Source: Coriobacteriales bacterium
GTDB lineage: Bacteria; Actinomycetota; Coriobacteriia; Coriobacteriales; UBA8131
Reading direction: 5' to 3'
Assembly: GCA_031282085.1 (NCBI GenBank)
Contig: JAITEK010000068.1
Span: forward strand, 1 to 40,150
DNA: 40,150 nucleotides
In this document: positions 8,097 through 32,263 of the stretch, piece after piece
Position numbering within the stretch: the stretch's first letter is position 1
Layout of the letters: each line of letters starts with the position of its first letter
Program-made: the position numbers and the translations under genes
The notes under the pieces: generated by a model
What the model was told of the DNA's origin: nothing
Seen by the model: only the letters and a program-made list of their open reading frames with translations
Database searches by the model: none

Positions 8097-8184
8097 GAAC
8101 AACGGTTCCGCAAGCACCTCAAGCGCGTTTGCGGAGCAAAATCGAGTAAAAACACTCGCATGTGGGAGATGGGAGATTCCAACC

Positions 8185-8811: not shown

Positions 8812-8850
8812 CAAGCCACCACCCCCAACCGCATACCGCACAACGGGAGG

Positions 8851-8871
8851 GGGCATAATCGTGCCCTTTTT
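8851..8871 (+). terminator. Possible intrinsic terminator after the Hpt gene
   Basis: gggca-taatcg-tgccc (8851-8866) followed by TTTTT (8867-8871). The stem is only 5 bp. Confidence 0.4.
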
Positions 8872-8890
8872 GTGGGGCTTTAGCACAAAA

Positions 8891-8920
8891 TTGACCCCTT
8901 GTGGGAAAAATCATCATATT
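8891..8920 (+). promoter_or_regulatory. Candidate promoter of the synthase operon
   Basis: TTGACC (8891-8896), an 18-nt spacer, then CATATT (8915-8920). This would give a leader of about 240 nt before the TTG at 9169. Confidence 0.35.
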
Positions 8921-9168
8921 TCACTAGAAAATTCTGCAACAACCCGTTATAGTGGTATGTACGATACGTGGGGGGATTGTGGGGGCGACCGTTGTTGGGT
9001 AGGTCGATCCGGTGTCGTGTGTTAATCCCTTACACATCTAAATTAAGAACGTTCTGGTTCGTAAGCAAACGGGCGACGGGGTGTTTCCTTGTTTGCATGG
9101 CGAACGAATAGGGGGAAAGAACGCTCGTTCCCTCTATGCTTCACTGATGTGATGAAAGAGGAGGAAGC

Positions 9169-12100
9169 TTGAACACCAGAATCGCGATTAGCACGCCTTT
9201 TGAGGCTCCGGATGTGTCCTTGGCAGTAGCTACCGCCCACTCGGGTGCTTTTCCTATCCTGCATTTGGGGAGAAGCCGCGAAGAGGCAACAGACGCTTTG
9301 GCAACAACGGCCCAAAGGCTGCGACAGCCCTTCGGCGTATGCATCGCCGACGAAACCCTGGCAGATCTACCGTTACCCGAGCAGGTATCACGCGTGGTGC
9401 TTCCCTGGGGATTCACAAAGCCCAAGGGGACGAAAGCCGAGGTACTGTGGCAGGTGCACTCGGTGGCAGAAGCCAAAGAGGCCCTGTCCCAAAAGGCAAA
9501 GGCCTTGGTCCTCAAAGGCAGCGAGGGCGCGGGAAGATGCGCGGAGGACTCATCCTTCCTCTTGTTCCAGAGCCTGCTTGAGCCATCTCGCAAGGCTAAA
9601 GCCTCTCTCTATATACAAGGAGGCGTCGGCGTCCATTCGGCAGCCGCCTATCTGACCCTTGGCGCCCAGGGCGTCATCCTGGACTCCCAGGTCGCGCTGT
9701 TCCCCGAGTGCTGTCTTTCCGAGGACCTCAAAACAACCATAGGGCGTTTGAGCGGAAGCGAGATACGGACGAGCGGGGACTACCGTTACCTGCTGCGCCC
9801 CGGTGCGCCCGACCCGGGTGAGGACACGAGCTTTGACGAGCTACTGCCCCGCATAGGCATCGACGCGGAGCACGACTGTGTGCCCCTTGGGCAGGACGCC
9901 ATACTGGCTCCCGATTACGCCAAGGAATACCGGCGCCTGCGCTACCTCATAAAAGCCATTGAGCGCGCCACTGATTCACATCTGCGCCTGGCCCAGACCC
10001 GCGATGCTCTCACGCGCGGCGACGCCATGAGCGAGTATCTCGGTACCGAACTCCCGCTCGCACAGGGGCCCATGGCTCGTATAAGCGATGTTCCCGCCTT
10101 CCTGCGCAACGTAGCCGATGGCGGCGCTTTGCCCTTCCTCGCCATGAGCATGATGCGGGGCGCAGCCGCCGAGAACGCACTTACCAAGACCGCCGAGGCG
10201 CTTGAGGGTAAGGCGTGGGGCGTGGGCATCCTGGGCTTTGCCTATCCCAAGATGCTGGAGGAGCAGACCCGCCTCATCCGTGAGGTAAAACCTCCCGTCG
10301 TGCTCATCGCCGGCGGACGGCCCTCCCTGGCCAAGCCCTTTGAGCAGGACGGCATCAAGGTCTTTCTGCACGTACCGGCAGCCGGGCTGCTTGAGATGTT
10401 CTTAAAGGAAGGCGCCCGCTCCTTTATCTTCGAGGGACGCGAGAGCGGCGGACATGTGGGTCCGTTGTTCTCAACCGTGCTCTGGGAGAAGCAGATGAAC
10501 CTCCTGCTCGCCCATGAGGACACCGCCGCGCTGAACCTGTTCTTCGCTGGCGGCATCCACGACGAGTTCTCGGCCGCCTTCGTGCGCCTGGTGACGATAC
10601 CTCTGTCTGCCCGCGGCGCCAAGGTCGGCATAATCGCCGGTACTGCCTATCTGTTCACCAAAGAGATAGTTAAAAGCGGCGCCATCACGGAGGAATACCG
10701 CCGCCTGCTCATCGAGGGCGACTCCACCGTGCTGCTCAAGTCCGGCAAGGGTCAGGAGACCCGCTCCGTACCCTCCCCCTTCACCGAGTTCTTCGCAGAT
10801 GAGCGTCGTCGCATGCTCAGCGAGGGAACCGACACCGTTGACGTCCTCATGCAGCTGGAAGACCTCAACATCGGCCGTTTGCGCATAGCCTCCAAGGGCA
10901 TTGAGCGCCAGGGCGATGAGCTGATAGAGCTTCCTTTGGACGCACAGCGGGAGAAGGGCCTCTACATGACAGGCGCCGTTACCCCGCTCATCAACAAGGT
11001 GACCACCATCGACGCCCTCCACAGCCGGCTCATCGATAAGAGCCGAGCTTTGCTTGAGGAGCTCAAGCCCGCCGCGGAGCCGCAGAACGTAACCCCGACC
11101 TCTGGGTCTGTGGCCGTTGTCGGCATGGCGGCGATGTTCCCCGACGCGGAGGACCTCGAGGAGTATTGGCGCAACATCCTGTTCGGCAAGAACAGCATCA
11201 CGGAGGTGCCGGCCACGCGTTGGTCCACCGAGCTGTTCTACGACCCGGACCCCAAGGATACCGACCACGTTGTCTCCAAATGGGGAGGCTTCATCGGCAC
11301 GGCCGACTTTGACGCGCTTGAGTTCGGCATCACGCCGCAATCCCTTGCCGCCATCGAGCCCATTCAGCTTCTGAGCCTGCTGATAACCAAACGCGCCTTT
11401 GAGGACGCGGGTTATGGTGACCTCTCCGGGGTTGACCTGGAGAACACCTCGGTTATCTTCGGCGCTCAGGGAGCAGGCGAGCTTACCACCGCCTACGGCT
11501 TCCGTGCAGGGCTGCGTCATATGTTCGGCGAACTGACGCCCGAGCTCAACGAGATGCTGCCGCGTCTCACCGAGGACTCCTTCCCCGGTGTGCTCTCCAA
11601 CGTTATCTCCGGCCGTATCTCCAACCGCCTCAACACTGGCGGACGCAACTTCACCGTCGACGCCGCCTGCGCCTCATCGCTCGCCGCGCTCGACATAGCC
11701 TATGGCGAGCTTACCTCGCATCGCGCCGATATGGTGGTGCTCGGCGGGGCCGACGCACACAACTCCATCGGCGACTTCCTCATGTTCTCGAGCACCTTCG
11801 CGCTCTCCAAGCGCGGCTACTGCGCTACCTTCGACAAAGACGCCGACGGCATCACGCTCGGTGAGGGCGTCGGTGTGCTTCTGCTCAAGCGTCTTGAGGA
11901 CGCCGAGCGCGATGGCGACAAGATATACGCCGTCATCCGGGGCATGGGCGCCTCGAGCGACGGCAAGAACCTCGGCCTTACCGCTCCAAGCAGGCGCGGT
12001 CAGATAAAAGCACTGGAGGAGGCCTTCGCCACCAGCGGCATACAGCCCTCGGACGTGGGACTCGTTGAGGCCCACGGCACGGGCACCTCGGTGGGCGACC

Positions 12101-15100
12101 GCATCGAACTCGGCGCGCTGACCGACGTATTCCTCGACGCGGGCGCGCTGCCCAAGCGCACCCAGCTCGGTTCCGTCAAGACCCAGATAGGCCACACGAA
12201 GTGCGCCGCTGGCGCTGCTGGGCTCATCAAGGCCGTACTCGCCGTCCAGCACGGGATACGGCCGGCAACCCTCAACCTCCAATCGCCCAACGACGCTTAC
12301 GTGGATGGGGGGCCGTTCTTCTTCCGTACGGATAAACCGGGGCTTTGGAGCGAGGAGCGCCGCATTGCCGGCGTGAGCGGCTTCGGCTTCGGCGGTACGA
12401 ACTTCCACGCGCTGGTTGAGAGCTACGGGGATACGCGCCCCGACACCGTGCTCAAGGCATGGCCCTCCGAGCTGCTGGTGTTCCGCGGCAAGAGCGCTGA
12501 GGAAGCACGCACGCTCATGGAGAAGGTGCGCACGCTCCTGCTCATAAACAACCGCCTCAAACTCAGGGACATTGCCTACAGCCTGGCCTGCTACGGCGAG
12601 GACGAGGCCAACGCGACCGCTGAGGCTGGCGAGGGCGAAAAGGCCGAGGAGGCTGCTGAGAGCGCCATCCATTACGCCATCGTGGCCGAAAGCCGCGAGG
12701 AGCTGCTCGCGAGCATCGACGCCACCTTAAACGGCGAGTCTGCCAGCGGCGTCTACCCACTTGAGCCCCTCGAGGGCAAGGTGGCCTTCCTGTTCCCCGG
12801 GCAGGGGAGCCAACGCGTGAACATGGCGGCCGACTTGTTTGTCATCTTCCCCAAACTGCGTCGCCTGCTTGAGGCGCATCCCGAATATGAGGAAATATTG
12901 TTCCCGCCCGCGGCCTTCAGCGCAAAGGAGAAGGCCGCTCAACGTGCCGCTATCACCGACACCCTGAACGCACAGCCGCTGCTGGGCCTCGTCGATCTGG
13001 GGATCGCGGAGCTCCTGCGCGACTTCGGCGTTGCGGCAGATATGGCCTGTGGGCATAGCTACGGCGAGCTGCCCGCTTTAAGCTTTGCCGGCGCGCTCGC
13101 GGCTGAAGACCTACTCGGTTTGAGCCGCGCGCGCGCGCAGGCCGTCCTCAGCGCGGTGGGGGCAGACCCCGGGCGCATGATCGCCGTAAGCACCGACAAG
13201 CAGACCCTCGACGGTCTGTTGGCGGGCGAGAAGGACCTCTGGGCAGTAAACCTCAACGCGCCACGTCAGATCGTGGTGGCAGGCACAACGGAGGCTATCG
13301 CGGCCTTTGCCGACAAACTGAAGGAGGCAGAGGTCAACTTCAGCGAGCTGAACGTGGCAGCCGCCTTCCACTCTCCCCTGCTCGCGGACGCGGAGGGCAT
13401 CTTCGCCCAGACGCTGAAGGACGTAAAGCTGAGCAAGCCGGCGCTCGACGTCTGGTCGAACACGACTGCCGCTCGCTATCCTCAGACCTCAGCGGCCATA
13501 AAGCGCCGCCTGGGAGAGCACCTCGTCAAACCCGTACGCTTTGTCGATGAGATAGAGGCGATGTACGAGGACGGGGCGCGCGTATTCATCGAAGTAGGCC
13601 CCGGCGGCGTGCTGACAGGGCTTGCGAACAAGATACTTGCCGATAAAGAAGCCCTCCTTATACAGACGGAGCGCAAGGACGCGGAGGGTGTAAGCCTGCT
13701 CTTACACGGGTTGGGGCGTTATATCGCCTCGGGCAGGACAATCGATCTGAAGGGTTTATTCGAAGGAAGGGGTGTTACGGTGTTGGATATAGACCAGCCG
13801 GAAAGCTATCGCAAAAAGGGCACGGTGTGGAATGTGGACGGGCAGAAAGCCGTGCCAGAAAACGGCAACCTCCCCGTTCACGCAAACAAACTGGGAGAAG
13901 CGGGGGCCTTTGGGAGCTTCTCACTGAACGCAGCGTACGCGGGCGCAAGCCCCGAGCAGATCATGATGTCGTACCTGGACAACATGAACGCTGTCATCCA
14001 AGACCAGCGCGACGTGATGCTGGGCTATCTGGGACAGACGGAGATCATTCCGCGCGCCGCGGCGGCGCCACGACGCTTTGACACTACCGCGTCTGCCGCT
14101 TTGCCCGCCTCCCCCATCGACATCTCCACCAGTGAGGCGGAAGTGGTCGTTGCGGACGCAGGCAGCGCCCTGCCCTCCATACTGGAGCTTTCCACCGAGG
14201 AGGTGCGTGCCATCATCCTGGACGTGGTGAGCGAGAAGACCGGCTATCCTATCGACATGCTCGATTTCTCCGCCAACCTCGAGGCCGACCTGAGCATCGA
14301 CTCCATCAAGAAGATGGAGATCGTCGGCGGTCTGCGCGAGCGCGCGGCCTTCCCCGATGACGAGGACGACATGGAGGAATCCTTTGAGAAGCTCATCTCC
14401 ATCAAGACCTTGCAGGAGATGCTCGACTGGATACAGAGCCTTGAGGAGGGCAGCTCCGGCGGCTCCTCGCAAGCGCCTGCTTCTGAGGGCCTCGGCGCCA
14501 TCACGGCCACTGCCGACGCCGCCGCCCTATCCGACGACGCGGACGACGCGGACGACGCAGATGACGAGAACGCCATCCATCGCCTGATACCTGTTGAGAA
14601 GCCCGTTGAGCTCAAAGAGTCCGAGCAAAACCTCCTTGAAGGAGCGCACATCGCCTTAACCGATGAGGGGACCGATCTCACCGCACGGATCGCCGAGGAG
14701 CTCAAGGCCCGCGGCGCCGTGGTTGACATCGTTACAGCCGACACCGCCGATCTGACGGATTTTGACGGACTGGTGCTCGTGAATGTTGCCGGCTCGAAGG
14801 TGCACTACCAGACCACGGACCTGTTCGAGCTTATCAAACGAGCCGACCTGGAAAAGCTGAAGACGATCTACACCTTTGACGACGCGGTGGGAACCCTGCT
14901 TGCAAGCGAGGACCTGAGCAGGCTCGACCTGCTGGAAGGCTTTGCGGGCTTTATCAAGAGCCTCAAGCACGAGTATGGCGACAAGCGGCTGTGCGCGATA
15001 AACCTCTACACGCCGGCGGACGCCGAGAGCCTTCCCGCGATCGTGGCGGGCGAGCTTTTGGTGGAGGAGCCCTTCCCCGAGGTGTTCTACCGCGGAGCCG

Positions 15101-16026
15101 AGCGCTTCTTGAGACTGGCGGAGATCGAGGAACTGGACGCTGAGACCGAAGGCGCCGGGCTGGCACTGGACAAGGACTCCCATGTCCTCGTACTCGGTGG
15201 CGCCCAGGGTATCACCCCCGCGCTCGTCGCTCGTTTGGCGGCCACCTATCCCGCTCACTACATCCTCGTCGGCCGCTCGGCCGCCTCGCAGGACAACGAT
15301 GCCTATCGCGACCTGGCTACTGCTGACGAGATCCGCAGCTATCTCATCAATACCGAGGGCATGAAGCAGCCTCGCGAGATAGAGAAGCGCATCAAGGAGA
15401 TCTTCAAGACCAACCAGATACAAAACGCGATCGCCCGCATCGAGGAAGCGGGTGGCAGCGCCAGCTATCGCGCCGTTGACGTGCGCGACGCCGAGGCCTT
15501 CCGCGCGCTCATCGCCGAGCTCAAGGAGGAGTACAGCAGCATAGACGGCGTCATCCACGCCGCTGGCATCCTTGAGGACAAGCTGTTCCAGGACAAGGAG
15601 CTTGAGTCCTTCAAGCGCGTCTACGGCACCAAGGTCGACCCGCTCAAGCCCATATTGGATGAGCTGATCGACGAGCTCAAGCTGCTCGTCATGTTCTCCA
15701 GCAGCTCGTCTACCTTCGGTAACATCGGTCAGAGCGACTACGCCGCCGGCAACAGCGTGATGGACAACATCGCCCTGCTCCTGGATGACAAATATCCCGA
15801 GCTGCGGGTCGTGGCCTTTAACTGGGGCCCCTGGAAGGGCGCTGGCATGGTAAACGCTGGCCTGGAGCAGCAGTTCCGCAACCGGGGAATCGCGTTCCTC
15901 CCGCTTGAGGAGGGCAGCAGCTTCTTCGCGAACGAGCTGATAAACGGCGACAAGCACGGCGTAGTGGTGCTGGGAGGCAGCAAACGGGGACTTGTGAACC
16001 TGTTCGCGACGCTGCCGCGCTACTGA
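9169..16026 (+). CDS. Pfa/Hgl-like type I synthase subunit 1, domain order ER-like, ER, KS, AT, ACP, KR
   Basis: TTG start with GAGGAGGAAG SD (9158-9167); 2285 codons. Domains read from the translation:
- NMO/FabK-like barrel with degenerate motif GSEGAGRC (about 9169-9990).
- PfaD/FabK-type ER with QGPMARISD and FEGRESGGHVGP (about 10040-11050).
- KS with DAACASS (Cys codon 11668-11670), EAHGTGT (His 12073) and GHTKCAAG (His 12193) (about 11110-12425).
- AT with FPGQGSQ, GHSYGE (Ser codon 13057-13059) and AFHSPL (about 12775-13640).
- ACP with LSIDSIKKME (Ser codon 14302-14304).
- KR with LGGAQGITP (about 15196-15219) and SDYAAGN (Tyr codon 15739-15741). Confidence 0.9.
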   Translation: MNTRIAISTPFEAPDVSLAVATAHSGAFPILHLGRSREEATDALATTAQRLRQPFGVCIADETLADLPLPEQVSRVVLPWGFTKPKGTKAEVLWQVHSVAEAKEALSQKAKALVLKGSEGAGRCAEDSSFLLFQSLLEPSRKAKASLYIQGGVGVHSAAAYLTLGAQGVILDSQVALFPECCLSEDLKTTIGRLSGSEIRTSGDYRYLLRPGAPDPGEDTSFDELLPRIGIDAEHDCVPLGQDAILAPDYAKEYRRLRYLIKAIERATDSHLRLAQTRDALTRGDAMSEYLGTELPLAQGPMARISDVPAFLRNVADGGALPFLAMSMMRGAAAENALTKTAEALEGKAWGVGILGFAYPKMLEEQTRLIREVKPPVVLIAGGRPSLAKPFEQDGIKVFLHVPAAGLLEMFLKEGARSFIFEGRESGGHVGPLFSTVLWEKQMNLLLAHEDTAALNLFFAGGIHDEFSAAFVRLVTIPLSARGAKVGIIAGTAYLFTKEIVKSGAITEEYRRLLIEGDSTVLLKSGKGQETRSVPSPFTEFFADERRRMLSEGTDTVDVLMQLEDLNIGRLRIASKGIERQGDELIELPLDAQREKGLYMTGAVTPLINKVTTIDALHSRLIDKSRALLEELKPAAEPQNVTPTSGSVAVVGMAAMFPDAEDLEEYWRNILFGKNSITEVPATRWSTELFYDPDPKDTDHVVSKWGGFIGTADFDALEFGITPQSLAAIEPIQLLSLLITKRAFEDAGYGDLSGVDLENTSVIFGAQGAGELTTAYGFRAGLRHMFGELTPELNEMLPRLTEDSFPGVLSNVISGRISNRLNTGGRNFTVDAACASSLAALDIAYGELTSHRADMVVLGGADAHNSIGDFLMFSSTFALSKRGYCATFDKDADGITLGEGVGVLLLKRLEDAERDGDKIYAVIRGMGASSDGKNLGLTAPSRRGQIKALEEAFATSGIQPSDVGLVEAHGTGTSVGDRIELGALTDVFLDAGALPKRTQLGSVKTQIGHTKCAAGAAGLIKAVLAVQHGIRPATLNLQSPNDAYVDGGPFFFRTDKPGLWSEERRIAGVSGFGFGGTNFHALVESYGDTRPDTVLKAWPSELLVFRGKSAEEARTLMEKVRTLLLINNRLKLRDIAYSLACYGEDEANATAEAGEGEKAEEAAESAIHYAIVAESREELLASIDATLNGESASGVYPLEPLEGKVAFLFPGQGSQRVNMAADLFVIFPKLRRLLEAHPEYEEILFPPAAFSAKEKAAQRAAITDTLNAQPLLGLVDLGIAELLRDFGVAADMACGHSYGELPALSFAGALAAEDLLGLSRARAQAVLSAVGADPGRMIAVSTDKQTLDGLLAGEKDLWAVNLNAPRQIVVAGTTEAIAAFADKLKEAEVNFSELNVAAAFHSPLLADAEGIFAQTLKDVKLSKPALDVWSNTTAARYPQTSAAIKRRLGEHLVKPVRFVDEIEAMYEDGARVFIEVGPGGVLTGLANKILADKEALLIQTERKDAEGVSLLLHGLGRYIASGRTIDLKGLFEGRGVTVLDIDQPESYRKKGTVWNVDGQKAVPENGNLPVHANKLGEAGAFGSFSLNAAYAGASPEQIMMSYLDNMNAVIQDQRDVMLGYLGQTEIIPRAAAAPRRFDTTASAALPASPIDISTSEAEVVVADAGSALPSILELSTEEVRAIILDVVSEKTGYPIDMLDFSANLEADLSIDSIKKMEIVGGLRERAAFPDDEDDMEESFEKLISIKTLQEMLDWIQSLEEGSSGGSSQAPASEGLGAITATADAAALSDDADDADDADDENAIHRLIPVEKPVELKESEQNLLEGAHIALTDEGTDLTARIAEELKARGAVVDIVTADTADLTDFDGLVLVNVAGSKVHYQTTDLFELIKRADLEKLKTIYTFDDAVGTLLASEDLSRLDLLEGFAGFIKSLKHEYGDKRLCAINLYTPADAESLPAIVAGELLVEEPFPEVFYRGAERFLRLAEIEELDAETEGAGLALDKDSHVLVLGGAQGITPALVARLAATYPAHYILVGRSAASQDNDAYRDLATADEIRSYLINTEGMKQPREIEKRIKEIFKTNQIQNAIARIEEAGGSASYRAVDVRDAEAFRALIAELKEEYSSIDGVIHAAGILEDKLFQDKELESFKRVYGTKVDPLKPILDELIDELKLLVMFSSSSSTFGNIGQSDYAAGNSVMDNIALLLDDKYPELRVVAFNWGPWKGAGMVNAGLEQQFRNRGIAFLPLEEGSSFFANELINGDKHGVVVLGGSKRGLVNLFATLPRY
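14533..14568 (+). repeat. 9-bp coding tandem repeat (gacgacgcg-type, four units) encoding DDADDADDADDE in the ACP-KR linker
   Basis: Read directly: gacgacgcg gacgacgcg gacgacgca gatgacgag. Confidence 0.8.
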
Positions 16027-16050
16027 ACTACTGAGCCATAGTGGGGGGAT

Positions 16051-16069
16051 CTCGGCGCCTGGCGCCGAG
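16051..16069 (+). other. GC-rich hairpin between the two synthase genes
   Basis: ctcggcgcc-t-ggcgccgag is a 9-nt perfect inverted repeat lying 25 nt after the subunit-1 stop. There is no U-tract, so it is not a canonical terminator. Confidence 0.6.
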
Positions 16070-16171
16070 GATGACAAGCAAATGAGATAACGACAAGACA
16101 GAGGGTGTCACATATGACGATACATGAGCTGGTAGGTGGCGGATTTAGAGAGGATGTCATAGAAGCACCGT

Positions 16172-19100: not shown

Positions 19101-20644
19101 CCCCGGCCGCCCCATCCCTCCCCCCAACAAATGGGTCGGCCGGCGCGCGGATACCTACGCAAGCATCGCGCGAGGACTTCAAGGAGACCTTGCGCCTCAA
19201 CTTTGAGGATCATCCCTATCTCGTAGACCACTCGATCGTGCGTCAGCCCGAGGGCTGGGAGTTCGCGGATGACCTCAACCTCGTCGTGCCTCTGACCATG
19301 ACCATCGAGCTGCTCTCTGAGATAGCCCAACGCTATGTGCCCGACCACAAGCTCGTGTGCGTAAGCAAGGTTTGGGCCTATCGGTGGATCACCCTTGAGG
19401 CTCCCTTTGAGGAGACCCTTGAGGGCCACTGGAAAGGACCACTGGTACTGGAGCTGAACCTGGTAGGCTTTGCAAAGGCCGAGTTCACTTTTGCGGATGA
19501 ATACCCGGAGCCACCCGCCGAGTACCTGGGCGACATAGACGTCGGCGAGAAGATCATGGAAAACGTAACGCCCGATGTGCTCTACCATCGCTACTCCTTC
19601 CACGGGCCGCAGTATCACTCCAACATAGGCCTGGTGAAGGTCGGCGCGCGCGGTATGATCAACTACGCGCAACGGCGCGGAGGAAAGGGCTCCCTGCTCG
19701 ACGTCATGGGGCAGCAGCTCGGATTGTTCCTGCATCTGACGCAGACCGTGAACACCATCTCCTTCCCCATCCGTTTGAAGGAGCTGAGCTTCTACGCCGA
19801 CATCTTCGACCAGGAAGGCGTCTTTGAGCACACGATGGTCATCACGCGCCTGACCGAGAGCAGCATCGTCGGCGACATGATACTTAAACGCGACGGCAAG
19901 ATATGGGCCGTGGCGCGGGACTTCGTCTGCCAGCGCTTTGAGAATTACCTCCCCGTCTGGGGCGTGATACGCGAGCCACAGTGCAACAAACTGGCCGAGG
20001 AGATAGCACCGGGCGTCTATCACTACACCAACGTCAGCCGCAACAACGTGCTCGATCTGCTCTCAAAGCGCTACCTGAACGGCCCAGACCGGGCGGAGAT
20101 CGAGAATCTCGGCTCGTCGACACGCATACGGGAGTTGCTGACCAGCCGTATCGTCTTAAAGGACGCCGTGCGCGATTTTGTGCAGCAACACCATGGCGGC
20201 GGCGAGATGATATTCCCCATTGAGATATTCTATGCCCACGACGAGAAGGGCAAACCCCTCGTCAACGGCTATGGGCGCACGGTGGAGCTCATCGAGGATC
20301 TCGAGATCTCGTTGTCGCACAAGGGCGATGAGGCCGTCGCGATAGTGGCAAAGGAGCCTGTCGGCATCGACCTTGAGAAGATAGAGGAGAAGTCCGAGGG
20401 CTTCCTCAAGGCCAGCTTCACGGAGCGGGAGCGTGCGTTACTCGCCCCGCTTGAGCAACCCGAAGCCATCCTGCGATTCTGGGTAGCAAAAGAGGCCGTC
20501 GCGAAGAAAGCCGGCACTGGCCTTGAGGGCAATCCGAAACGCTTTGAAGTAACCGCGGTGGACGGTGATGTACTCACCGTGGGAGATCAAAAGGTCCAAA
20601 TCGTTAAGATCGGAGAGGAGCACGTGGTCGGATGGACAATATAA
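16172..20644 (+). CDS. Pfa/Hgl-like type I synthase subunit 2, domain order KS, AT-like, PKS-type DH, Sfp-type PPTase
   Basis: GTG at 16172 (alternative ATG at 16184). Domains:
- KS with DAACASG (Cys codon 16829-16831), EAHGTATPVGD (His 17234) and GHTMPAAG (His 17348) (about 16220-17585).
- Divergent acyltransferase with CPGFGPD and GHSVGEW (Ser codon 18065-18067) and GAGFHTPL (about 17850-18620).
- DH with HPYLVDHSIV (His codon 19229-19231), FHGPQY and LLDVMGQQ (about 19180-20000).
- C-terminal phosphopantetheinyl transferase with ISLSHKGDEAVAIV, GIDLEKI and FWVAKEAVAKK (about 20040-20641). Confidence 0.9.
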   Translation: MGSRMSQVSKLITREDRDIAIVGISVFCPAGESVEEFWDGISRGVDFITDAPPEIIAAHHFEGQPNGIDRFYCKRGGFSKAFKVDPLRYGILPITADAIDPDELLSLAGSEQALIDADIFEKGIPLQNGAIIIGKGNFSGAVSLRSLEIVRTAWQLTALIKSILPDLSDEDIERIRKGYQAQQGRYQADMAIGTMPNLVASMVANRFDMHGPAYTVDAACASGIVAINHSIGLLRSGQIDVAVAGGMHTAQSAMFWGAFDMMGAMSRRGEIAPFSKNADGLLIGQGGGFIVLKTLRKALEDGDRIYALIKDTAIASDGAGTHVTVTSVKGQVRVLKRAWEAAGMDPELLGYVEAHGTATPVGDRTELNTLKEFFGDNTHPQAFVGSVKSNMGHTMPAAGMMGIIKTALSLYHRQIPPTLHCEDPLPAMFESRFLPPQELIDWDTDQYPLIAGVNAFGFGGINSHAILTAYEPTKGMPPQPKPKVWLGEALRLSATSKDALIEKLKSGDYTDTGGNYRLVIFEPSDERVQKAISIVEKDKPWRGRMDIWFSNQALIENGGKVVFLCPGFGPDEIPETESISRMLDLPFVEEELAKQDILEHTRTTLRNFIVGFLCKEALEKLGIEPDIYVGHSVGEWNATIYAGMTDGNWKKIGRMVNSLYNPLRFPLIAVSGIDIETVNAWCDEIDGLYLSNDNCPSQVLLAGTESAVEILTKRLADERLFYSILPYGAGFHTPLIGEDNQDQQILETVDVHEGHTPVWSATTLELVPSDRDEYNALVDSQMRRPVYFRELTEKLYAEQNACVFVQLGVATLNNFVEDTLKGQDICTVSAVASGRLGADQLRRVLAALYIEGRPVDADFLGVKPLYRTEHSLLTVLRGAPPILDELPELTEVVKQRYGDVGSHLAQGLEGAESLSGNPVLDAASANLREASKVQSELVRLFEQMPQSAFTSSTTPAESAAALGAGSSASPFTFSRSAPAAPSLPPTNGSAGARIPTQASREDFKETLRLNFEDHPYLVDHSIVRQPEGWEFADDLNLVVPLTMTIELLSEIAQRYVPDHKLVCVSKVWAYRWITLEAPFEETLEGHWKGPLVLELNLVGFAKAEFTFADEYPEPPAEYLGDIDVGEKIMENVTPDVLYHRYSFHGPQYHSNIGLVKVGARGMINYAQRRGGKGSLLDVMGQQLGLFLHLTQTVNTISFPIRLKELSFYADIFDQEGVFEHTMVITRLTESSIVGDMILKRDGKIWAVARDFVCQRFENYLPVWGVIREPQCNKLAEEIAPGVYHYTNVSRNNVLDLLSKRYLNGPDRAEIENLGSSTRIRELLTSRIVLKDAVRDFVQQHHGGGEMIFPIEIFYAHDEKGKPLVNGYGRTVELIEDLEISLSHKGDEAVAIVAKEPVGIDLEKIEEKSEGFLKASFTERERALLAPLEQPEAILRFWVAKEAVAKKAGTGLEGNPKRFEVTAVDGDVLTVGDQKVQIVKIGEEHVVGWTI

Positions 20645-20949
20645 GCAGCACTTCGGCGGGGGCGCCACAGCGGATTGAGCCAGGCTCGATAGCCGCACAG
20701 ATCGTAGACATCGTCATCGAGATCATCGGTGAGGATGCTGCGAGCTTTTTGGTGTTCACCAAAGAGAGCAGCTTCATCAACGACCTTGAGATGGACAGTA
20801 TCCAGGTCATCCGCCTCTCAAAACGCGTTAACGAGCTGTATGGAGACCAGGTCGACCTTATCGGATGGCTCTCCAAGCGACCCGTCAACGAACTGCTCAC
20901 CCTCACGATAGGCGATGTGTCGTCCTTTGTGGAGGAGGGTTCTCGATGA
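20632..20949 (+). CDS. Free-standing acyl carrier protein
   Basis: 105-aa ORF whose ATG lies 13 nt inside the end of subunit 2. It carries the phosphopantetheine attachment motif FINDLEMDSIQVIRL (Ser codon 20797-20799). Confidence 0.8.
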   Translation: MDNISSTSAGAPQRIEPGSIAAQIVDIVIEIIGEDAASFLVFTKESSFINDLEMDSIQVIRLSKRVNELYGDQVDLIGWLSKRPVNELLTLTIGDVSSFVEEGSR

Positions 20950-21656
20950 ACCGTCCGGCCATCGCGACTTTGCAGAGTGTGACCAAGGTATATCAGGCCG
21001 AGGGCCTGCCGGTCATGGCCATCGAAGGCGCCTCATTCAGCGTCGGGCAGGGGGAGATCTGCGCGATCATCGGAGCTTCCGGCTCGGGCAAGACGACCCT
21101 CCTCAACATCATAGGAGGCATAGACCGCTGCAACTCCGGCACCGTTGTCGTGGATGGCAGGGACATCACCCTCTTAAACGACAAGGAGCTGACGGAATAC
21201 CGCCGCCGCGAGGTGGGCTATGTGTTCCAGTTCTACAACCTGATACCGAACCTGACCGCCCTGGAGAATGTTGAGCTTGCCTCCGACATCTTCAAGACGC
21301 CGATCAAGGCGGCGGACATGCTGGACGCCGTGGGGCTGGGCGAGCGTCGCGGCAACTTCCCCTCTCAACTCTCGGGTGGAGAGCAGCAGCGCGTGGCCAT
21401 CGCGCGCGCCCTGGTGAAGATGCCTAAGCTGCTATTGTGTGATGAGCCGACCGGCGCCCTCGACAGCAAGACCGGCGTTCAGGTGCTCAGGATGCTGCAG
21501 CAGGCAAGCCTGTCGTTCGGCGTGACTGTGATACTGGTTACGCATAACACGGCAATCGTCGAGATGGCGAACCGCATCATAACTGTACGGAACAACAGGA
21601 TCGAGCGCATCATCATCAATCCCCAACCCTACCGTGCGGAGGATATCGTGCTATGA
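20946..21656 (+). CDS. ABC transporter ATP-binding protein (MacB/LolD/FtsE-like)
   Basis: The ATG at 20946 overlaps the ACP stop (ATGA). Walker [13 protein letters not shown], signature [15 protein letters not shown], Walker [14 protein letters not shown]-loop VTHN. Confidence 0.9.
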
Positions 21657-24600
21657 GCCGAGCACTGGGAAAGATAACGCGACGAGGGCTGCTTCGTGCG
21701 CCCGGACGCTTCATCGCGCTCTTCCTCATCATAGTGCTGGGGGCGGGCTTTTTGGCAGGTCTCCAATCCACGGCCCCCGACATGGTCGCGACCGCCGACA
21801 AGTATTTTGTCGATAAGAACCTTGCGGACTTCCGCCTTGCCTGCGACCTGGGCATCACCGAGGACGACGTTGGTGCCGCCCGGGCGTTGCCGGAGGTGGC
21901 ACAGGCAAGCGGTACCTACCGCGTCGACCTCAAGGGCGCCATCAACGAGACGTCGGCTATCTATGCCATCCACAGCCTTCCTTCCGACGTGGCAAGCGGT
22001 ACCTACCTCTCGCAGCTAGCACTGCAGGAAGGCCGTCTGCCCGAGCAACCGGAGGAATGCGTCGCCGACTCCTACTCGTCTATCCAGATCGGTGACAGGA
22101 TAGTGCTGGCCGAGGATAACCCCTCAGGCTCGCTTGAGATGCTGTCGCCCCGGACGCTCACCGTTGTCGGGCTGGCGCGCTCGTCGGCCTATGTCTCAAC
22201 GACCCGCGGCAACAGCGGCATCGGCAGCGGCCGGGTAAATAACTTCCTCTACGTGCAGGAAGCAGCGTTTACCAGCGAATACTACACCGGAATCGAACTC
22301 CGCCTTACCTCCACCGAGGGTCTTTCGGCCTTCTCGAAGAAGTATACGGAGGCTATCGAGGAAGGGCGGGCTGTTCTTGAGGAATTTACCCAGCGCCGCG
22401 CAGAGCTGCGACGCGACGACATAACCGCGGAGGTTGAGACAAACCTCGACGAGGCCGAAGCCGAGTTGGAGACTGAGAGCACGCAGGTAGAGACCGATTT
22501 GGCCTCGGCACAAGAAGCGCTGGAAAGCGGCCTGATAAGCCGTGATGAGGGTCTGCGACGCTACGAGGAGTCCTCGATAACCCTTGCGCGGAGCCGCCGG
22601 GAGCTGGACCAGGGCTGGACCAATCTCTCCGTGTCCCAGCAGGAGATAAGCACGCTACAGACGACATTCGAGGCGAGTCAGAGCGCGGTGGCAGGAGGTC
22701 GGGCAACCCTCCAGGAGCTTACGCAGCAACGCGACGCCCTCAAGACCGCGCTGGCGTTTGAGAACGATTCCGCGGCGGCGGCGACCCTTCAGATACAGAT
22801 AGACGCGCTCCAGGCGCAGATAGACCCGCTTTCCTCGCAGATAAGCGCCGGCGAGACCGAACTCGCAAAGGCCGAGGAGCAACTCAGCTCCGCCCAGGCG
22901 GCCTATGCGGAGGCCGAAAGCCAGCTCCAGAGGGGTGAGCAGGAATACCGCGCAGGAGAAAACGCGCTGTGGAACCTCTACTACCAGATCGAGCGGGCGA
23001 CCGAGCAGCTCAACTCAGGCCAGCAGGAATACGACCAGCAATCGGCGGAAGCCACAGACGCGCTTGAGGAGGCCCGCGCCGAACTCGACCAGAACCGCAA
23101 CGAGTTGGAGACACTGGCCCTGCCCGCCTGGTCCATCGAGGAGCGCAAGGATTTCCCCGGATACGCGAACTTCTCCGCTGACAAGGATCGCATCGCGAAC
23201 CTCTCCCTCGTCTTGCCCTGGTTCTTCTTCCTCGTCGCGAGCATCGTCTGTCTCACGACGATGACCCGTATGGTAGAAGAACAGCGTGTGCAGATAGGGA
23301 CGCTCAAGGCCTGCGGATACCGCCGGGAGCAGATAGCCTTCGGTTACCAGGCCTACGCCTGGCTCATCGGCCTGAGTGGCGGTGCCCTAGGCGTCGCGAT
23401 CGGCGTGGCTCTTTTCCCCCAGGCCATCTGGAGCTCGTACACCGCGGTATATCTCATGGAACCCTTCCAATCGATACTCGCTCCCCTCCCCTGCCTCGTC
23501 GGCCTGTTGGGCGGAGCGATTGCACTGTCTTTGGCAACAGCGTTTGCGTGCCGCAACACGCTCGACCGGGAAGCCGCCGAGCTCATGCGTCCTCGCGCCC
23601 CCAAAGCCGGCAAGCGGGTATTCCTCGAGCGCTGGCAGGGGCTGTGGGCTCGGATACCCTTCAGCCGTAAGGTCACCATCCGCAACCTGTTCCGTTACCG
23701 TACCCGTTTTGTCGTCACGGTCCTCGGCGTGGCGGGCTGCGCGGCATTGCTGCTGGCCGGCTTTGGCCTGCGGGATTCCATCGCCAGTGAAGTCGAGATG
23801 CAATATGGCAGCGAAGGCGTCTTCCATCTACGGGCGACCCTCGCGCTCAATAATGCCTCCGGCAGCCAGGAGGATACGGAGCTGAACAAGGCGTTGGAGG
23901 GCGTTGCTGATACCTACACCCACATCGAGAACCTTACGGTGAGTTTTGGCGGCAAGACCAACGGCGATGTTGTTACCTATCTCTCGGTGCCCGAGGACAT
24001 TGATTCCTTTGGCGAATTCATCACCCTGCGTCAGCCGTCGGACCACGAGCCGATAGCGTTCCCGAGCACCATGCCGGACAGCACGACTGGTGTGGGCGAC
24101 CGACCGGCTGTTGTGATAACCGAGCAGTTGGCCAACAGGCTCGGCATAAAGGTCGGCGACGAGATCAGCTTCGGCCCGCCCACCGGGATCCCCGCAAAGG
24201 CCCGCGTAAGCGGCATAGCGGAGAACTACGTCTACAACTACGTGTACCTCTCACCTCAGAACTACCGGACGCTTTTCGGTGCGGAGCCTGAGTACCGTTC
24301 GATCTACCTGATGTCCGACCTGCCCGAAGATGATTTTGAGGAGCTGCTGACGAAGCTGGTAGCAACGGATAACGTAGCGACAGCCTTCCCCGTCTCCTCG
24401 TTCAGGGACGTGGTGGACCTCGTGATCGCAAATATGAGCACCGTTATCTCACTCATGATCGGTGCGGCGTTCATATTGGCTGCCGTCGTTCTCTATAATC
24501 TCATCAGCATCATGGTGCTGGAGCGGCAGCGGGAGTTCGCGACGATGAAGGTACTGGGCTATCACCGGGGCCAGGTTGCCGCTTTCCTCTCCCGCGAGAC

Positions 24601-24835
24601 CACGGTTATGACCTTTATCGGCCTGATCCTCGGCCTGCCGCTGGGCCTCTGGTTACACGGTTACGTTATGGCTACCATCGAGGTGAACGAGCTCATGTTC
24701 TCTCGCGTGATACTGCCGTTGAGCTTTGTTTTTGCGATAGTGTTCCCTTTGATCTGCAACTACGTGGTGAACCTGTGCGTGCGTCCGCGCCTGAACAGGC
24801 TCGACCCCGCTAAGGTTCTGAAGTCCATAGAGTAA
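21653..24835 (+). CDS. Double-FtsX/MacB-type ABC permease with a large coiled-coil extracytoplasmic insertion
   Basis: The ATG at 21653 overlaps the ATPase stop (ATGA). 1060 aa with an N-terminal TM segment (FIALFLIIVLGAGFLAGL). A heptad-like Ala/Glu/Gln-rich stretch of about 270 aa covers about 22355-23183. There are two FtsX-type TM bundles (about 23210-23760 and about 24430-24800) with a second extracytoplasmic domain between them. Confidence 0.85.
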   Translation: MSRALGKITRRGLLRAPGRFIALFLIIVLGAGFLAGLQSTAPDMVATADKYFVDKNLADFRLACDLGITEDDVGAARALPEVAQASGTYRVDLKGAINETSAIYAIHSLPSDVASGTYLSQLALQEGRLPEQPEECVADSYSSIQIGDRIVLAEDNPSGSLEMLSPRTLTVVGLARSSAYVSTTRGNSGIGSGRVNNFLYVQEAAFTSEYYTGIELRLTSTEGLSAFSKKYTEAIEEGRAVLEEFTQRRAELRRDDITAEVETNLDEAEAELETESTQVETDLASAQEALESGLISRDEGLRRYEESSITLARSRRELDQGWTNLSVSQQEISTLQTTFEASQSAVAGGRATLQELTQQRDALKTALAFENDSAAAATLQIQIDALQAQIDPLSSQISAGETELAKAEEQLSSAQAAYAEAESQLQRGEQEYRAGENALWNLYYQIERATEQLNSGQQEYDQQSAEATDALEEARAELDQNRNELETLALPAWSIEERKDFPGYANFSADKDRIANLSLVLPWFFFLVASIVCLTTMTRMVEEQRVQIGTLKACGYRREQIAFGYQAYAWLIGLSGGALGVAIGVALFPQAIWSSYTAVYLMEPFQSILAPLPCLVGLLGGAIALSLATAFACRNTLDREAAELMRPRAPKAGKRVFLERWQGLWARIPFSRKVTIRNLFRYRTRFVVTVLGVAGCAALLLAGFGLRDSIASEVEMQYGSEGVFHLRATLALNNASGSQEDTELNKALEGVADTYTHIENLTVSFGGKTNGDVVTYLSVPEDIDSFGEFITLRQPSDHEPIAFPSTMPDSTTGVGDRPAVVITEQLANRLGIKVGDEISFGPPTGIPAKARVSGIAENYVYNYVYLSPQNYRTLFGAEPEYRSIYLMSDLPEDDFEELLTKLVATDNVATAFPVSSFRDVVDLVIANMSTVISLMIGAAFILAAVVLYNLISIMVLERQREFATMKVLGYHRGQVAAFLSRETTVMTFIGLILGLPLGLWLHGYVMATIEVNELMFSRVILPLSFVFAIVFPLICNYVVNLCVRPRLNRLDPAKVLKSIE

Positions 24836-24963
24836 AACATGAGGAAAGGTGTGTAAAAGAGGGGTATAAAGAGGTAGGGGGAGAGGATTTGTACGGGAAT
24901 TCTGGTAGGAAGGTTTGAGAGCCGTAATCCCTGCAAGGGGGGATAAGGTAAGTGAGGTGCAAT

Positions 24964-26781
24964 ATGACCACAACAACGATTACGACAGCAAACACAAACA
25001 CAACCGCAAGCGTGGCAACAGCCGGGAGAGCAAGCACAACCCTGCCCTCAACCTCGGCGACTCCGGCGGCCTCGGCGCCTCCGGTGACCACAACAGCAGC
25101 GTCGGCGCCAGCGCCGACGCACGCATTCTACGAGCAGGAACGGCTCACTCCTTTGGAGCGCGTCACCGGAATCGTCGATGCAGACTCCTTTGAGGAATGG
25201 GACAGCGAGCTTTTGTGCCGCACACCGTTCCCGCTGCCCTTCTATGAGGACCGTTTGGAGCGTGAGAGGGAGAAGACCGGGTATCCCGAAGCGGTCTGCT
25301 CGGGCAAGGCGACCATCGGCGAACATCCCGTTGCCGTTATCGCAATGAACCCCTTCTTCCTCATGGGGTCGATGGGCTCAACCGTGGGCGAGCGCATAAC
25401 GCGCGCCATAGAGCACGCAGGCGAGGCGGGGTTGCCCCTCATCGTCTTTGCCGCATCGGGCGGTGCGCGCATGCAGGAAGGGCTGGCCTCGCTTCTGCAG
25501 ATGGCGAAGATCTCCTGCGCGCTGGCCCGTTACGCCGAGAAACGGCTCCTCTACATCTCCGTGATGACCGACCCGACGACCGGCGGTGTTATGGCCGCGC
25601 TCTCGTCACAAGGCGACATCATCATCGTGGAGAGGGGCGCCCAGATAGGTTTTACCGGCCGCCGCGTTATCGAGGCGACCTTCCGTCCGCAGTTCCCGGA
25701 GGAATTCCAAAGTGCGGACTACGCCCTAGAGCATGGTCTTATCGACATCGCCGTGGAGCGTTCAGAGCTGCGCGCCACCCTGGCACGCCTGCTTGCACTC
25801 CATCGGCACCGCGGACGGGACGCAACGGGGCATACGCATAAGGTCGAGATCCTGCCAAGCTCCGGGCGACATTGGCCCAACGCCAATGCGGGCGCCGACG
25901 GGAAGCGCTCTGCCTGGGACAAGGTCCGGCTCGCACGGAAGATGGACCGCCCCACGGCACAGACCTATCTGAGAGAGATAATCACTGATTTCGTCGAATT
26001 GCGCGGCGATCGCGGCTTTGCTGATGACTCGGCTATTATCGGCGGCGTCGGACGCCTCGGTGGCTTCCCTGTTACGGTTATCGCGCAGGAGAAGGGCGTC
26101 ACCACCGCAGAGCGTGTCGCGCGTAATTTCGGCATGCCACACCCCGAGGGTTACCGTAAGGCGATGCGTCTCGCACGCCAGGCCGAGAAGTTCGGGCGCC
26201 CGGTCATCTGTCTCGTCGATACGCAGGGGGCGCATTGCGGCGTCGAGTCGGAAGACCGCGGCCAGGGCAACGCCATCGGCGATTGCCTTACCGTTATGTC
26301 GACCTTGCGGGTGCCCGTGATAAGCGTCATCCTCGGCGAGGGAGGCAGCGGCGGCGCATTGGCGCTGGCGTTGGCGAACTCGGTCGGTATGCTGGAGAAC
26401 GCGATCTACTCCATCTGCTCCCCCGAGGCGTTTGCGACCATATTGTGGAAGGACTCCTCGCGTTCGGCTGAGGCCGCGGAGATCATGCGCATCACCGCTC
26501 ACGAGGCCTTTGAGATGGAGGCCATCGACGAGGTGATTCCTGAGCCGACAGAAGGCGCGCACGCCGATCCACACACAGCCGCGGAGGCGGTAGAGCACTT
26601 CCTCGTACGGGAGCTGGAGCGCCTTGTGCCTCTGGATGCAGAAACGCTCATGCGAAAACGGCAGCAGCGGTTCCGCGACTTCCTGCGCATCGAGCAGCAG
26701 CACACACACGAGGCCAGCATCTTGGATTTTAGGGCCATTGACCGTGAGGAGTACGAGCTGTCGGTAGCCCAGGGTCGCTGA
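24964..26781 (+). CDS. Acetyl-CoA carboxylase carboxyltransferase, fused beta-alpha (AccD-AccA) polypeptide
   Basis: ATG at 24964 (GAGG 7 nt upstream; the ORF track uses GTG at 24952). AccD-like portion: GKATIGEHPVAVIAMNPFFLMGSMGSTVGERI...FAASGGARMQEG. AccA-like portion: WDKVRLARKMDRPTAQTYL...GDRGFADDSAIIGGVGRLGGFPVTVIAQEKG...GEGGSGGALA. The N-terminus is Thr/Ala/Pro-rich and lacks the CxxC pairs of the AccD zinc ribbon. Confidence 0.85.
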   Translation: MTTTTITTANTNTTASVATAGRASTTLPSTSATPAASAPPVTTTAASAPAPTHAFYEQERLTPLERVTGIVDADSFEEWDSELLCRTPFPLPFYEDRLEREREKTGYPEAVCSGKATIGEHPVAVIAMNPFFLMGSMGSTVGERITRAIEHAGEAGLPLIVFAASGGARMQEGLASLLQMAKISCALARYAEKRLLYISVMTDPTTGGVMAALSSQGDIIIVERGAQIGFTGRRVIEATFRPQFPEEFQSADYALEHGLIDIAVERSELRATLARLLALHRHRGRDATGHTHKVEILPSSGRHWPNANAGADGKRSAWDKVRLARKMDRPTAQTYLREIITDFVELRGDRGFADDSAIIGGVGRLGGFPVTVIAQEKGVTTAERVARNFGMPHPEGYRKAMRLARQAEKFGRPVICLVDTQGAHCGVESEDRGQGNAIGDCLTVMSTLRVPVISVILGEGGSGGALALALANSVGMLENAIYSICSPEAFATILWKDSSRSAEAAEIMRITAHEAFEMEAIDEVIPEPTEGAHADPHTAAEAVEHFLVRELERLVPLDAETLMRKRQQRFRDFLRIEQQHTHEASILDFRAIDREEYELSVAQGR

Positions 26782-26813
26782 TTGATCGGTTGATTGATTA
26801 AGGCTCGGCGCGC

Positions 26814-30245: not shown

Positions 30246-30327
30246 GTAGTACCCTTCCCTCAAAGAGCCGTGGCTCTCCTTCTCCAATGTGCGCTGGCGT
30301 TGCACCAGCGGCGCCCCTTGGGCTCCT

Positions 30328-31837: not shown

Positions 31838-31846
31838 CGCTACCCC

Positions 31847-32245: not shown

Positions 32246-32263
32246 CGCAGACGACGTTCCTCC

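Follow-up and report, generated by a model that had tools for sequence, protein, structure and literature searches.

A cluster of six genes occupies positions 9169-26781 of contig JAITEK010000068.1 (GenBank assembly GCA_031282085.1), from a Coriobacteriales bacterium; the whole stretch of 40,150 nucleotides that was analysed is referred to here as the window. The six open reading frames (ORFs), all of which run in one direction on the forward strand (9169-16026, 16172-20644, 20632-20949, 20946-21656, 21653-24835, and 24952-26781), are translationally coupled and form an intact operon-like cluster. They encode two large multidomain synthase proteins (gene 1 and gene 2), a discrete acyl carrier protein (ACP), an ABC ATPase, a permease, and an AccD-AccA fusion protein. 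Here we describe the domains of these proteins, compare the cluster with its relatives in other bacteria, and propose that it makes a lipid that is exported to the cell envelope.

Gene and domain content of the cluster

Domains were called chiefly by a Pfam scan of 42 ORFs or sub-sequences of the window, comprising the six cluster genes and plausible flanking genes. Gene 1 (9169-16026, 2285 aa), resolved from the ORF with Pfam and NCBIfam models, encodes two barrels related to enoyl reductase (ER), followed by ketosynthase (KS), acyltransferase (AT), ACP, and ketoreductase (KR) domains. Its best NCBIfam match is TIGR02813 (PfaA), at 940.4 bits against a cut-off of 1010.1, and its dN/dS is 0.094 in comparison with L006, the sister locus introduced below. 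The second barrel (aa 283-640, 10015-11088) is an FMN (flavin mononucleotide) enoyl reductase of the FabK/PfaD type, recognised by Pfam NMO and TIGR03151 (FabK), with FabK enzymes as its best matches in PDB and an E[CS]GGH motif that is invariant in 42/42 homologues. The first (aa 1-282, 9169-10014) is a degenerate NMO/FabK-like TIM barrel with a marginal Pfam NMO match (E 0.09). Profile-profile alignment with hhalign, built on 42 homologues, shows that the two barrels are homologous (97.4% probability, E 1.2e-11), which bears out the pair of NMO/PfaD-type barrels proposed in the initial annotation of this DNA. The catalytic His, however, is present in all 42 second barrels and in none of the first (0/42), where its position is taken by R, L, K, or F in every homologue and by Arg in the window. 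Because this residue is never present, the first barrel reads as a conserved pseudo-ER, leaving the second as the only one predicted to be a competent ER, of which the pseudo-ER is probably a structural partner.

The remainder of gene 1 consists of a KS (aa 647-1037, 11107-12279; Pfam ketoacyl-synt and its C-terminal domain) with an intact Cys-His-His triad in the motifs DAACASS, EAHGTGT, and IGHTK, a malonyl-type AT (aa 1207-1507, 12787-13689; Pfam Acyl_transf_1, TIGR00128 FabD) with PGQGSQ, GHSYGE, a downstream Arg, and AAFHS, a single in-line ACP (aa ~1683-1725, 14215-14343) with the motif LSIDSIKK, and a KR (aa 2006-2223, 15184-15837; Pfam KR, E 7e-33) with the motif YAAGN. The in-line ACP matches Pfam PP-binding with an E-value of 0.0032 when all of gene 1 is scanned, and of 5.5e-4 when the sub-sequence is.

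Gene 2 (16172-20644, 1490 aa, or 1483 aa in the NCBI call; ORF and Pfam) encodes a KS, a divergent AT (hereafter AT'), a dehydratase (DH), and a phosphopantetheinyl transferase (PPTase), and has a dN/dS of 0.13 against L006. In its KS (aa 17-422, 16220-17437; Pfam) the residues C213, H348, and H386 are invariant among 16 homologues; a role of this domain as chain-length factor (CLF) was considered and rejected, the active Cys being retained. The AT' domain (aa ~555-830, 17834-18661; Pfam Acyl_transf_1, 37.5 bits) keeps the Ser-His dyad, with an invariant HTP His and the consensus G[HY]SxGE[WY] (GHSVGEW in the window). Since PGQGSQ is replaced by PG[FY] in its alignment, and the conserved Arg downstream of the Ser, the malonyl-carboxylate-binding position in FabD-type enzymes, is gone, malonyl loading by AT' is unlikely as judged from these residues, and the domain may plausibly act in acyl transfer or hydrolysis. 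The earlier idea that this domain might off-load the finished chain is thus a reasonable one, given the loss of malonyl-loader features.

The DH region (aa 985-1300, 19124-20071) has no Pfam match, and a PDB sequence search with it gave nothing useful. An AlphaFold model (pLDDT 82, pTM 0.82), searched with Foldseek, nevertheless identifies a double-hotdog fold of the polyketide synthase (PKS) type, the top 50 PDB matches being PKS DH domains (MlnB, CurF/J, MAS-like PKS; E to 2e-12). The catalytic His and the DxxxQ motif are invariant among homologues, so that the PKS-type DH of the initial annotation is borne out by predicted structure and conserved residues, though Pfam is silent. An Sfp-type PPTase (aa 1396-1471, 20357-20584; Pfam ACPS), whose motifs GIDLE, WVAKEA, and ISLSH are conserved among homologues, completes the protein, whose sequence is 100% identical to an NCBI protein from a Coriobacteriales metagenome-assembled genome, and is followed by the discrete ACP (20632-20949, 105 aa) with the motif LEMDSIQ and a Pfam PP-binding score of 21.7 bits (gathering score 20.8). 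The other elements that had been read from the sequence at the outset, namely two KS domains with the Cys-His-His triad, one canonical and one divergent AT, in-line and discrete ACPs, KR, and PPTase, were all recovered, either as motifs or by Pfam, and Pfam and NCBIfam likewise confirm the three accessory proteins, described next.

The ABC ATPase (20946-21656, 236 aa; Pfam ABC_tran, E 1e-35) belongs to the MacB/LolD/DevA group. The NCBIfam models that score best with it are LolD and DevA, both under their cut-offs; DevA reaches 196.7 bits (cut-off 295.8) and LolD scores higher. Its start is called identically on a Logan contig. The permease (21653-24835, 1060 aa) carries two FtsX and two MacB_PCD domains, which together with ABC_tran constitute a MacB-type (type VII) ABC exporter, and its orthologues in L006, L007, and L095-L098 measure 1033-1075 aa. 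Its first extracytoplasmic domain contains a coiled-coil insert of ~270 residues (aa ~219-490, 22300-23150) with SMC-like and colicin-like matches; as a speculation, this insert might be a built-in stalk through the monoderm wall that replaces a MacA/DevB adaptor.

The last gene, accDA (24952-26781; Pfam ACCA, E 5e-111, and Carboxyl_trans), encodes the fused carboxyltransferase subunits of acetyl-CoA carboxylase (ACC), and scores 364.1 bits with AccA model NF004344 (cut-off 357) and 271.9 bits with AccD model TIGR00515 (cut-off 317.45). In the JGI call it starts at 25084, giving 565 aa, which is likely the true start. Homologues of at least 64% identity are all of the same short form (21/21), and all those whose context was examined are linked to such a cluster. 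The nearest AccD-AccA proteins outside the termite clade are ~50% identical and come from other Coriobacteriia. In Anaerotardibacter muris and another Coriobacteriales genome the fusion is the last gene of a compact type II fab operon, acpP-fabK-fabD-fabG-fabF-fabZ-accDA (loci L093, 3917-12334, and L094, 5150-12553). These fab-linked copies are of a long form of 777-850 aa, the cluster-linked copies being ~200 residues shorter.

All junctions were read directly in the sequence and agree with the overlapping starts and stops first described for the six co-directional genes. The ACP reading frame, with its ATG at 20632, overlaps the stop codon of gene 2 (TAA, 20642-20644), and ATGA overlaps join the ACP to the ABC gene (20946-20949) and the ABC to the permease gene (21653-21656), each of these three overlapping starts being preceded by a GGAGG-type Shine-Dalgarno sequence. 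Upstream of gene 1, a consensus scan found promoter-like hexamers on the forward strand at 8891-8920 and 8925-8953 (-10 element TATAGT), and a leader of ~215 nt within 8891-9168 has the Shine-Dalgarno sequence GAGGAGG at its 3' end, followed by the TTG start of gene 1 at 9169. The 357-bp region 5' of gene 1 (8812-9168) shares ~80% identity with its counterpart in L006 and includes long invariant blocks, even though the synonymous sites of the two loci are close to saturation (dS about 0.8-1.1). An Rfam search of this conserved leader matched no family, and its folding does not differ significantly from that of shuffled sequences (z-score -1.5); the region may contain protein-binding sites or an undescribed leader element.

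The number of terminator-like sites within the cluster (18) is no higher than shuffled sequence would give (14.2 +/- 4.2), in agreement with the earlier view that no convincing terminator precedes 26781. Just past the last stop codon is a 15-bp hairpin (26800-26834, with two G-U pairs and the loop TACAC), which lies between accDA and a convergent GGDEF gene, lacks a canonical T-run and was therefore not listed by the terminator scan, and is the probable end of the transcription unit. A megablast search against plasmid DNA returned no match.

Relatives of the cluster and the missing release enzyme

Full-length homologues of gene 2, with 28-79% identity, were found by genome scan, protein search, and metagenome scan in termite-gut Coriobacteriales, Clostridiales, and Family XIII metagenome-assembled genomes, in three Listeria species, in Dysgonomonas, Propionibacteriaceae, and Streptomyces (32% identity), and on numerous contigs from soil, peat, and marine samples. 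A search with the DH-PPTase half yielded 189 cluster representatives (50% identity) at E <= 1e-30, and a Streptomyces copy of gene 2, used as query, found more than 120 Streptomyces clusters at identities of at least 74%. Neighbours were counted by BLASTP of the ORFs around gene 2 at 56 loci with at least 5 kb of downstream sequence. An alpha/beta hydrolase is encoded at 44 of the 56, a discrete ACP follows gene 2 at 37, gene 1 lies upstream at 36, and a GT1 glycosyltransferase (GT) comes after the hydrolase at 31, with smaller numbers for an ABC ATPase (10/56), an FtsX permease (6/56), accDA (3/56), and PapA-like genes (2/56).

Individual loci fill in this picture. An annotated Streptomyces plasmid encodes, in this order, a type I PKS, gene 2, an ACP, an alpha/beta hydrolase, a glycosyltransferase, and a methyltransferase; the Dysgonomonas locus has the hydrolase, two GTs, and an ABC exporter; and Listeria encodes the hydrolase and ABC-MacB_PCD-FtsX as a single fused protein of 891 residues, a fusion that suggests a link between release and export. 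All genes are intact in Listeria sp. PSOL-1 (L008). In Listeria grandensis (L002, 3281-9987) gene 1 is broken before the KR into ORFs of 2020 aa and 180 aa, and in L. cornellensis (L004) both synthase genes seem to be split, as does the hydrolase-ABC fusion; these broken copies may reflect decay of the cluster in some Listeria, or assembly errors. Judged by its recurrent position, the separate alpha/beta hydrolase next to the ACP gene is the candidate release enzyme of the family.

Seven loci from termite-gut Coriobacteriales were compared: the window, L006, L007/L009, L095, L096, L097, and L098. L096 comprises gene 1, gene 2, ACP, hydrolase (5326-6108), ABC, double FtsX, AccDA, and one PapA-like gene, and L097 has the same set but with three PapA/condensation-like acyltransferase genes in tandem after accDA (21192-24380). 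In L095 and L098 the order is gene 2, gene 1, ACP, hydrolase, ABC, and double FtsX, with AccDA seen in L095. L007/L009, one contig of 56,978 bp (JGI 3300042652), carries four gene-2 paralogues, one of them without the PPTase, together with two accDA genes, one hydrolase, one PapA-like gene, and a stand-alone KR-type protein of 755 aa that resembles the C-terminus of gene 1. The PapA-like proteins of these sister loci pass the Pfam gathering score for Condensation and match PapA5 in PDB. At all six loci where the region is visible, accDA follows the permease gene. Among the further genes of these loci, a B12-radical-SAM gene is present in L007/L009, and another lies upstream of gene 1 in L097, as do a second copy of gene 2 and an ACP-like gene.

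The hydrolase gene sits between the ACP and ABC genes at five of the seven loci and is missing only from the window and from L006, which is 79-87% identical to the window and keeps one PapA-like gene. The window, having neither hydrolase nor PapA-like gene, has the most reduced set of the seven. No thioesterase, reductase, condensation, AGPAT, hydrolase, PapA, or glycosyltransferase domain was found among the 42 scanned ORFs and sub-sequences of the window, and no remnant of a hydrolase, PapA-like, or GT gene was detected there by tblastn (all E > 0.01). The gene-2 tree pairs the window with L006 and places this pair within a group of loci that have the hydrolase, which makes the absence of the hydrolase from both a derived loss, as far as the tree of this one gene indicates. 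For all six genes dN/dS between the window and L006 is 0.09-0.23, at dS about 0.8-1.1, values that point to a cluster maintained under purifying selection despite the loss of the hydrolase. The lack of a release domain, put forward in the initial annotation, therefore stands for the window itself but is not a design principle of the family, given the separate hydrolase of most family and Coriobacteriales loci; and to call the operon self-contained, as was done there, overstates the case, since the window and L006 have lost a hydrolase that their relatives kept.

The seven loci share their neighbourhood, with response-regulator/HD-GYP and Hpt genes on one side and GGDEF and V4R genes on the other, a bracket that recurs in L006, L007/L009, and L095. 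In the window, Pfam places a response regulator with an HD-GYP-type HD_5 domain at 6921-8096 and an Hpt protein at 8173-8811, both on the forward strand, and a HAMP-GGDEF diguanylate cyclase at 26814-27932 and a V4R-domain protein at 28137-28691, both on the reverse strand. Control of the lipid cluster by cyclic di-GMP is conceivable in such surroundings. Farther downstream, a reverse-strand region (29184-33325) that encodes T2SS-E ATPase, T2SS-F platform, and DUF4860 proteins, along with several small ORFs that have no Pfam match, looks like a type IV pilus/Tad-like or competence-type operon unrelated to the lipid cluster; it is followed by a gene for a transglutaminase-like protein (33434-34480).

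Comparison with known lipid synthases

In File S1 of Shulse and Allen (2011; PMC3098273), Types M, N, and O of the secondary lipid synthases are listed as consecutive genes with the domain orders ER-KS-MAT-ACP(1-3)-KR, KS-AT-PPTase, and ACP. Type M is given for Frankia, Renibacterium, Actinosynnema, and Streptomyces avermitilis (NP_828538/37/36), Type N for Chryseobacterium gleum and Chitinophaga, the gene-2 entry of the latter being KS-PPTase, and Type O for Dinoroseobacter, Gloeobacter violaceus, and Parvularcula bermudensis, the last with the first two genes only and no ACP entry (PMC3098273). By listed domain order, the core of the window (gene 1, gene 2, and discrete ACP) has the same three genes in the same order; the ISLSH motif of its PPTase fits the P1b' signature hShxH of Types M-T rather than (F/S)NxSH; and the Streptomyces gene-2 homologues carry the same cassette. 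It differs in having one in-line ACP, where most entries have two or three and Parvularcula one, in adding the ABC/double-FtsX exporter and accDA, and in lacking the hydrolase and GT found near most family members; neither the DH nor the second barrel is listed in the 2011 table. The initial annotation had set this architecture apart from known systems, a claim that does not hold: the core corresponds to Types M/N/O domain for domain, gene 1 has the order of ArsA, and the family is widespread. The window thus represents a known, widespread orphan family and is new in its accessory genes only.

ArsA of Azotobacter vinelandii (Type P, ER-KS-MAT-ACP-KR; PMC3098273) shares the order and the ACP number of gene 1, a likeness that concerns the listed order only. 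Type P is the only type with a known product, the ArsA/ArsD type I synthase providing the long saturated chain of the cyst alkylresorcinols, given as C22-26 (PMC3098273) or C23-C25 (PMC4824345). ArsD is listed in File S1 as a PPTase alone (PMC3098273), in contrast to the multidomain gene 2. The type III PKS genes arsB and arsC lie between the Ars synthase genes, and no type III PKS was found among the 42 scanned ORFs and sub-sequences of the window. ArsA has no integrated thioesterase, and its chain is reportedly handed directly to partner enzymes, as Miyanaga et al. are said to have found in 2008. Mycobacteria combine a PKS, a PapA acyltransferase, and a transporter in the systems Mas-PapA5-DrrABC/MmpL7 and Pks2-PapA1/2-MmpL8. 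The sister Coriobacteriales loci similarly join a synthase to one to three PapA-like acyltransferases and a dedicated exporter, a combination that would fit a long acyl chain esterified to an envelope acceptor, although the synthase is here Pfa-like rather than Mas-like, the exporter is of the MacB rather than the MmpL type, and the window lacks the PapA-like gene.

The Hgl/DevBCA (HgdBC) system of heterocyst glycolipids resembles the cluster in pairing a Pfa-like synthase with an FtsX/MacB-type ABC exporter for an envelope lipid, and GTs accompany most family members outside the gut-anaerobe clade. Its parts, however, are KS-CLF-AT, separate ER and KR, ACP-thioesterase/reductase, and a separate PPTase (PMC3098273), none of which are so arranged in the window. 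As the closest precedent, which it had been called from the start, the Hgl/DevBCA system fits as a working model, given the GTs of most family members and the several ABC exporters, but its domain orders differ. Assignment of the cluster as an Hgl island was rejected, as the window has no KS-CLF-AT, ACP-thioester reductase, HglT glycosyltransferase, or DevB-type adaptor. Compared with PfaABCDE, gene 1 has a PfaA-like KS-AT-ACP-KR backbone and an ER of the FabK/PfaD type, whereas ER and PPTase are in the window fused into large proteins and the DH is of the PKS type; a canonical polyunsaturated fatty acid (PUFA) synthase was rejected on the single ACP, the lack of a CLF and of a FabA-type DH pair, and a score below the PfaA cut-off (940.4 against 1010.1 bits). 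Actinobacterial and fungal fatty-acid synthase of type I (FAS-I) is a single polypeptide of the order AT-ER-DH-MPT-ACP-KR-KS. With a different order split over two proteins, the window does not encode an actinobacterial FAS-I either, and on these tests of ACP, CLF, DH, cut-off, and domain order the synthase is, as had been proposed, neither of the two.

The antiSMASH class hglE-KS, often reported in genomes of Streptomyces, Chryseobacterium, and Sphingobacterium, is a label that we infer to cover the synthase family of the window. According to a 2026 paper "only a handful" of secondary lipids are known. Literature searches, including PUFA-synthase-like with glycolipid, hglE-KS, Chitinophaga, and Listeria grandensis, found no paper that assigns a product to the cassette, and nothing relevant on type I FAS in Coriobacteriia.

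A proposed pathway and its alternatives

We consider it fairly probable (roughly 0.6) that the cluster encodes an iterative, fully reducing secondary lipid synthase and forms a pathway for an exported envelope lipid. The complete domain set and the intact catalytic residues agree with the earlier proposal of a type I lipid synthase that is Pfa-like, reduces fully, activates its own carriers, and is accompanied by an exporter and an ACC subunit, and the association of the family with hydrolases, GTs, PapA-like acyltransferases, and exporters points to a lipid that is released, tailored, and exported. Listeria, Streptomyces, and Dysgonomonas have a type II FAS, so that the synthase family would be secondary in these genera.

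In termite-gut Coriobacteriales, the core would have been acquired horizontally and combined with a MacB-type ABC exporter and the AccD-AccA of the lineage. As deduced from the domain set, the fused PPTase would activate the in-line and the discrete ACP, and AccDA, with an unlinked biotin carboxylase and biotin carboxyl carrier protein, would supply malonyl-CoA, to be loaded by the canonical AT of gene 1. Two active KS domains would elongate the chain, and KR, PKS-type DH, and the single catalytic ER, braced by the pseudo-ER barrel, would reduce it in each cycle, to give a long saturated (or terminally 3-hydroxy) acyl chain. Once taken off its carrier, the product would be moved by the ABC/double-FtsX exporter to the cell envelope or the medium. 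Release is probably the task of the alpha/beta hydrolase in the sister clusters, where up to three PapA-like acyltransferases may also esterify the chain to an acceptor. PfaB-type ATs are reported to off-load chains; because the window has lost both the hydrolase and the PapA-like genes, the chain would there have to be released by the Arg-less AT' domain, or else by an enzyme whose gene lies elsewhere.

Several points weigh against this proposal. No product is on record for any member with the exact cassette, and the last step is a conjecture in a window that encodes no release enzyme. A type II FAS in the source organism is an assumption, and the fact that accDA closes a fab operon in other Coriobacteriia is just as compatible with a primary role. 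The permeases of Coriobacteriales and Listeria, moreover, have no BLAST similarity, and the link to an exporter may have arisen more than once.

The position of accDA is also the starting point of the alternative that the cluster is the primary fatty-acid synthase of the organism, a horizontally acquired type I cassette having taken the place that type II fab genes held upstream of accDA and now making the bulk fatty acids. AT' would then pass chains to the discrete ACP and on to PlsX/PlsC, and loss of the hydrolase would be sensible, since hydrolysis would waste acyl-ACP. Such a history would account for the ~50%-identical AccD-AccA that ends the fab operon in Anaerotardibacter muris and another Coriobacteriales genome, for accDA coming last after megasynthase and transporter at 6/6 loci of the window lineage, and for the uniformly short form and cluster linkage of its close homologues; a syntenic site among housekeeping genes and purifying selection on all genes suit it too, and Pfa synthases can cover FAS II functions (PMC8174602). 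Yet the paralogue expansion of L007/L009 (four gene-2 copies, a KR-only gene, and two accDA genes) is typical of secondary metabolism, and the varying number of PapA-like genes in the sister loci (one to three), the permuted order of genes 1 and 2 in L095 and L098, the conserved exporter within the operon, and the retention of the hydrolase at five of seven loci all sit poorly with a housekeeping role. The fab operons share no flanking synteny with the window, and recruitment of accDA has a precedent in the ACC genes of a secondary Type R cluster in Koribacter (PMC3098273). We therefore regard a primary role as unlikely. Its most specific version, in which a Type M/N/O-like synthase was inserted before accDA and took over bulk synthesis, the process being completed in the window sub-lineage by loss of the hydrolase and PapA-like genes and the discrete ACP becoming the phospholipid acyl donor, is a little more doubtful still; if true, it would be a case in nature where a PUFA-synthase-like type I system has replaced type II FAS.

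A product like the heterocyst glycolipids, with sugar added to the chain and a DevBCA-like exporter to deposit it outside the cell, is suggested by the GT1 gene after the hydrolase at 31/56 family loci, the 196.7 bits of the ATPase with the DevA model, and the FtsX/MacB type of the permease. We think it improbable for the window: no GT was found there by tblastn, nor in the Coriobacteriales and Listeria loci; a thioester reductase that could yield a fatty alcohol is absent, as are a CLF and a DevB-type adaptor; the ATPase stays under the DevA cut-off of 295.8 bits and scores higher with LolD; and the Hgl domain orders in File S1 (PMC3098273) differ from those of the cluster. It could also be imagined that the loss of hydrolase and PapA-like genes has left a decaying remnant with no finished product, the window being the most reduced of the seven Coriobacteriales loci and frameshifted or split genes occurring in the Listeria grandensis and L. 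cornellensis copies. The six ORFs are intact, however, with catalytic residues and translational coupling kept, and dN/dS has stayed at 0.09-0.23 since the divergence from L006 (dS about 0.8-1.1), a locus that is itself without a hydrolase, so that decay appears very improbable.

The comparisons suggest a working model in which a conserved module of synthase, ACP, and alpha/beta hydrolase is followed by lineage-specific tailoring and export: most phyla have glycosyltransferases, Listeria and Coriobacteriales have an exporter of the MacB type, and PapA-like and accDA genes are added in Coriobacteriales. Found in Streptomyces, Bacteroidota, soil, peat, and marine metagenomes, and gut anaerobes, the cassette is among the most widespread orphan lipid-synthase cassettes. 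The window would be a natural minimal version of it without the hydrolase, and could show whether the Arg-less AT' domain releases chains by itself.

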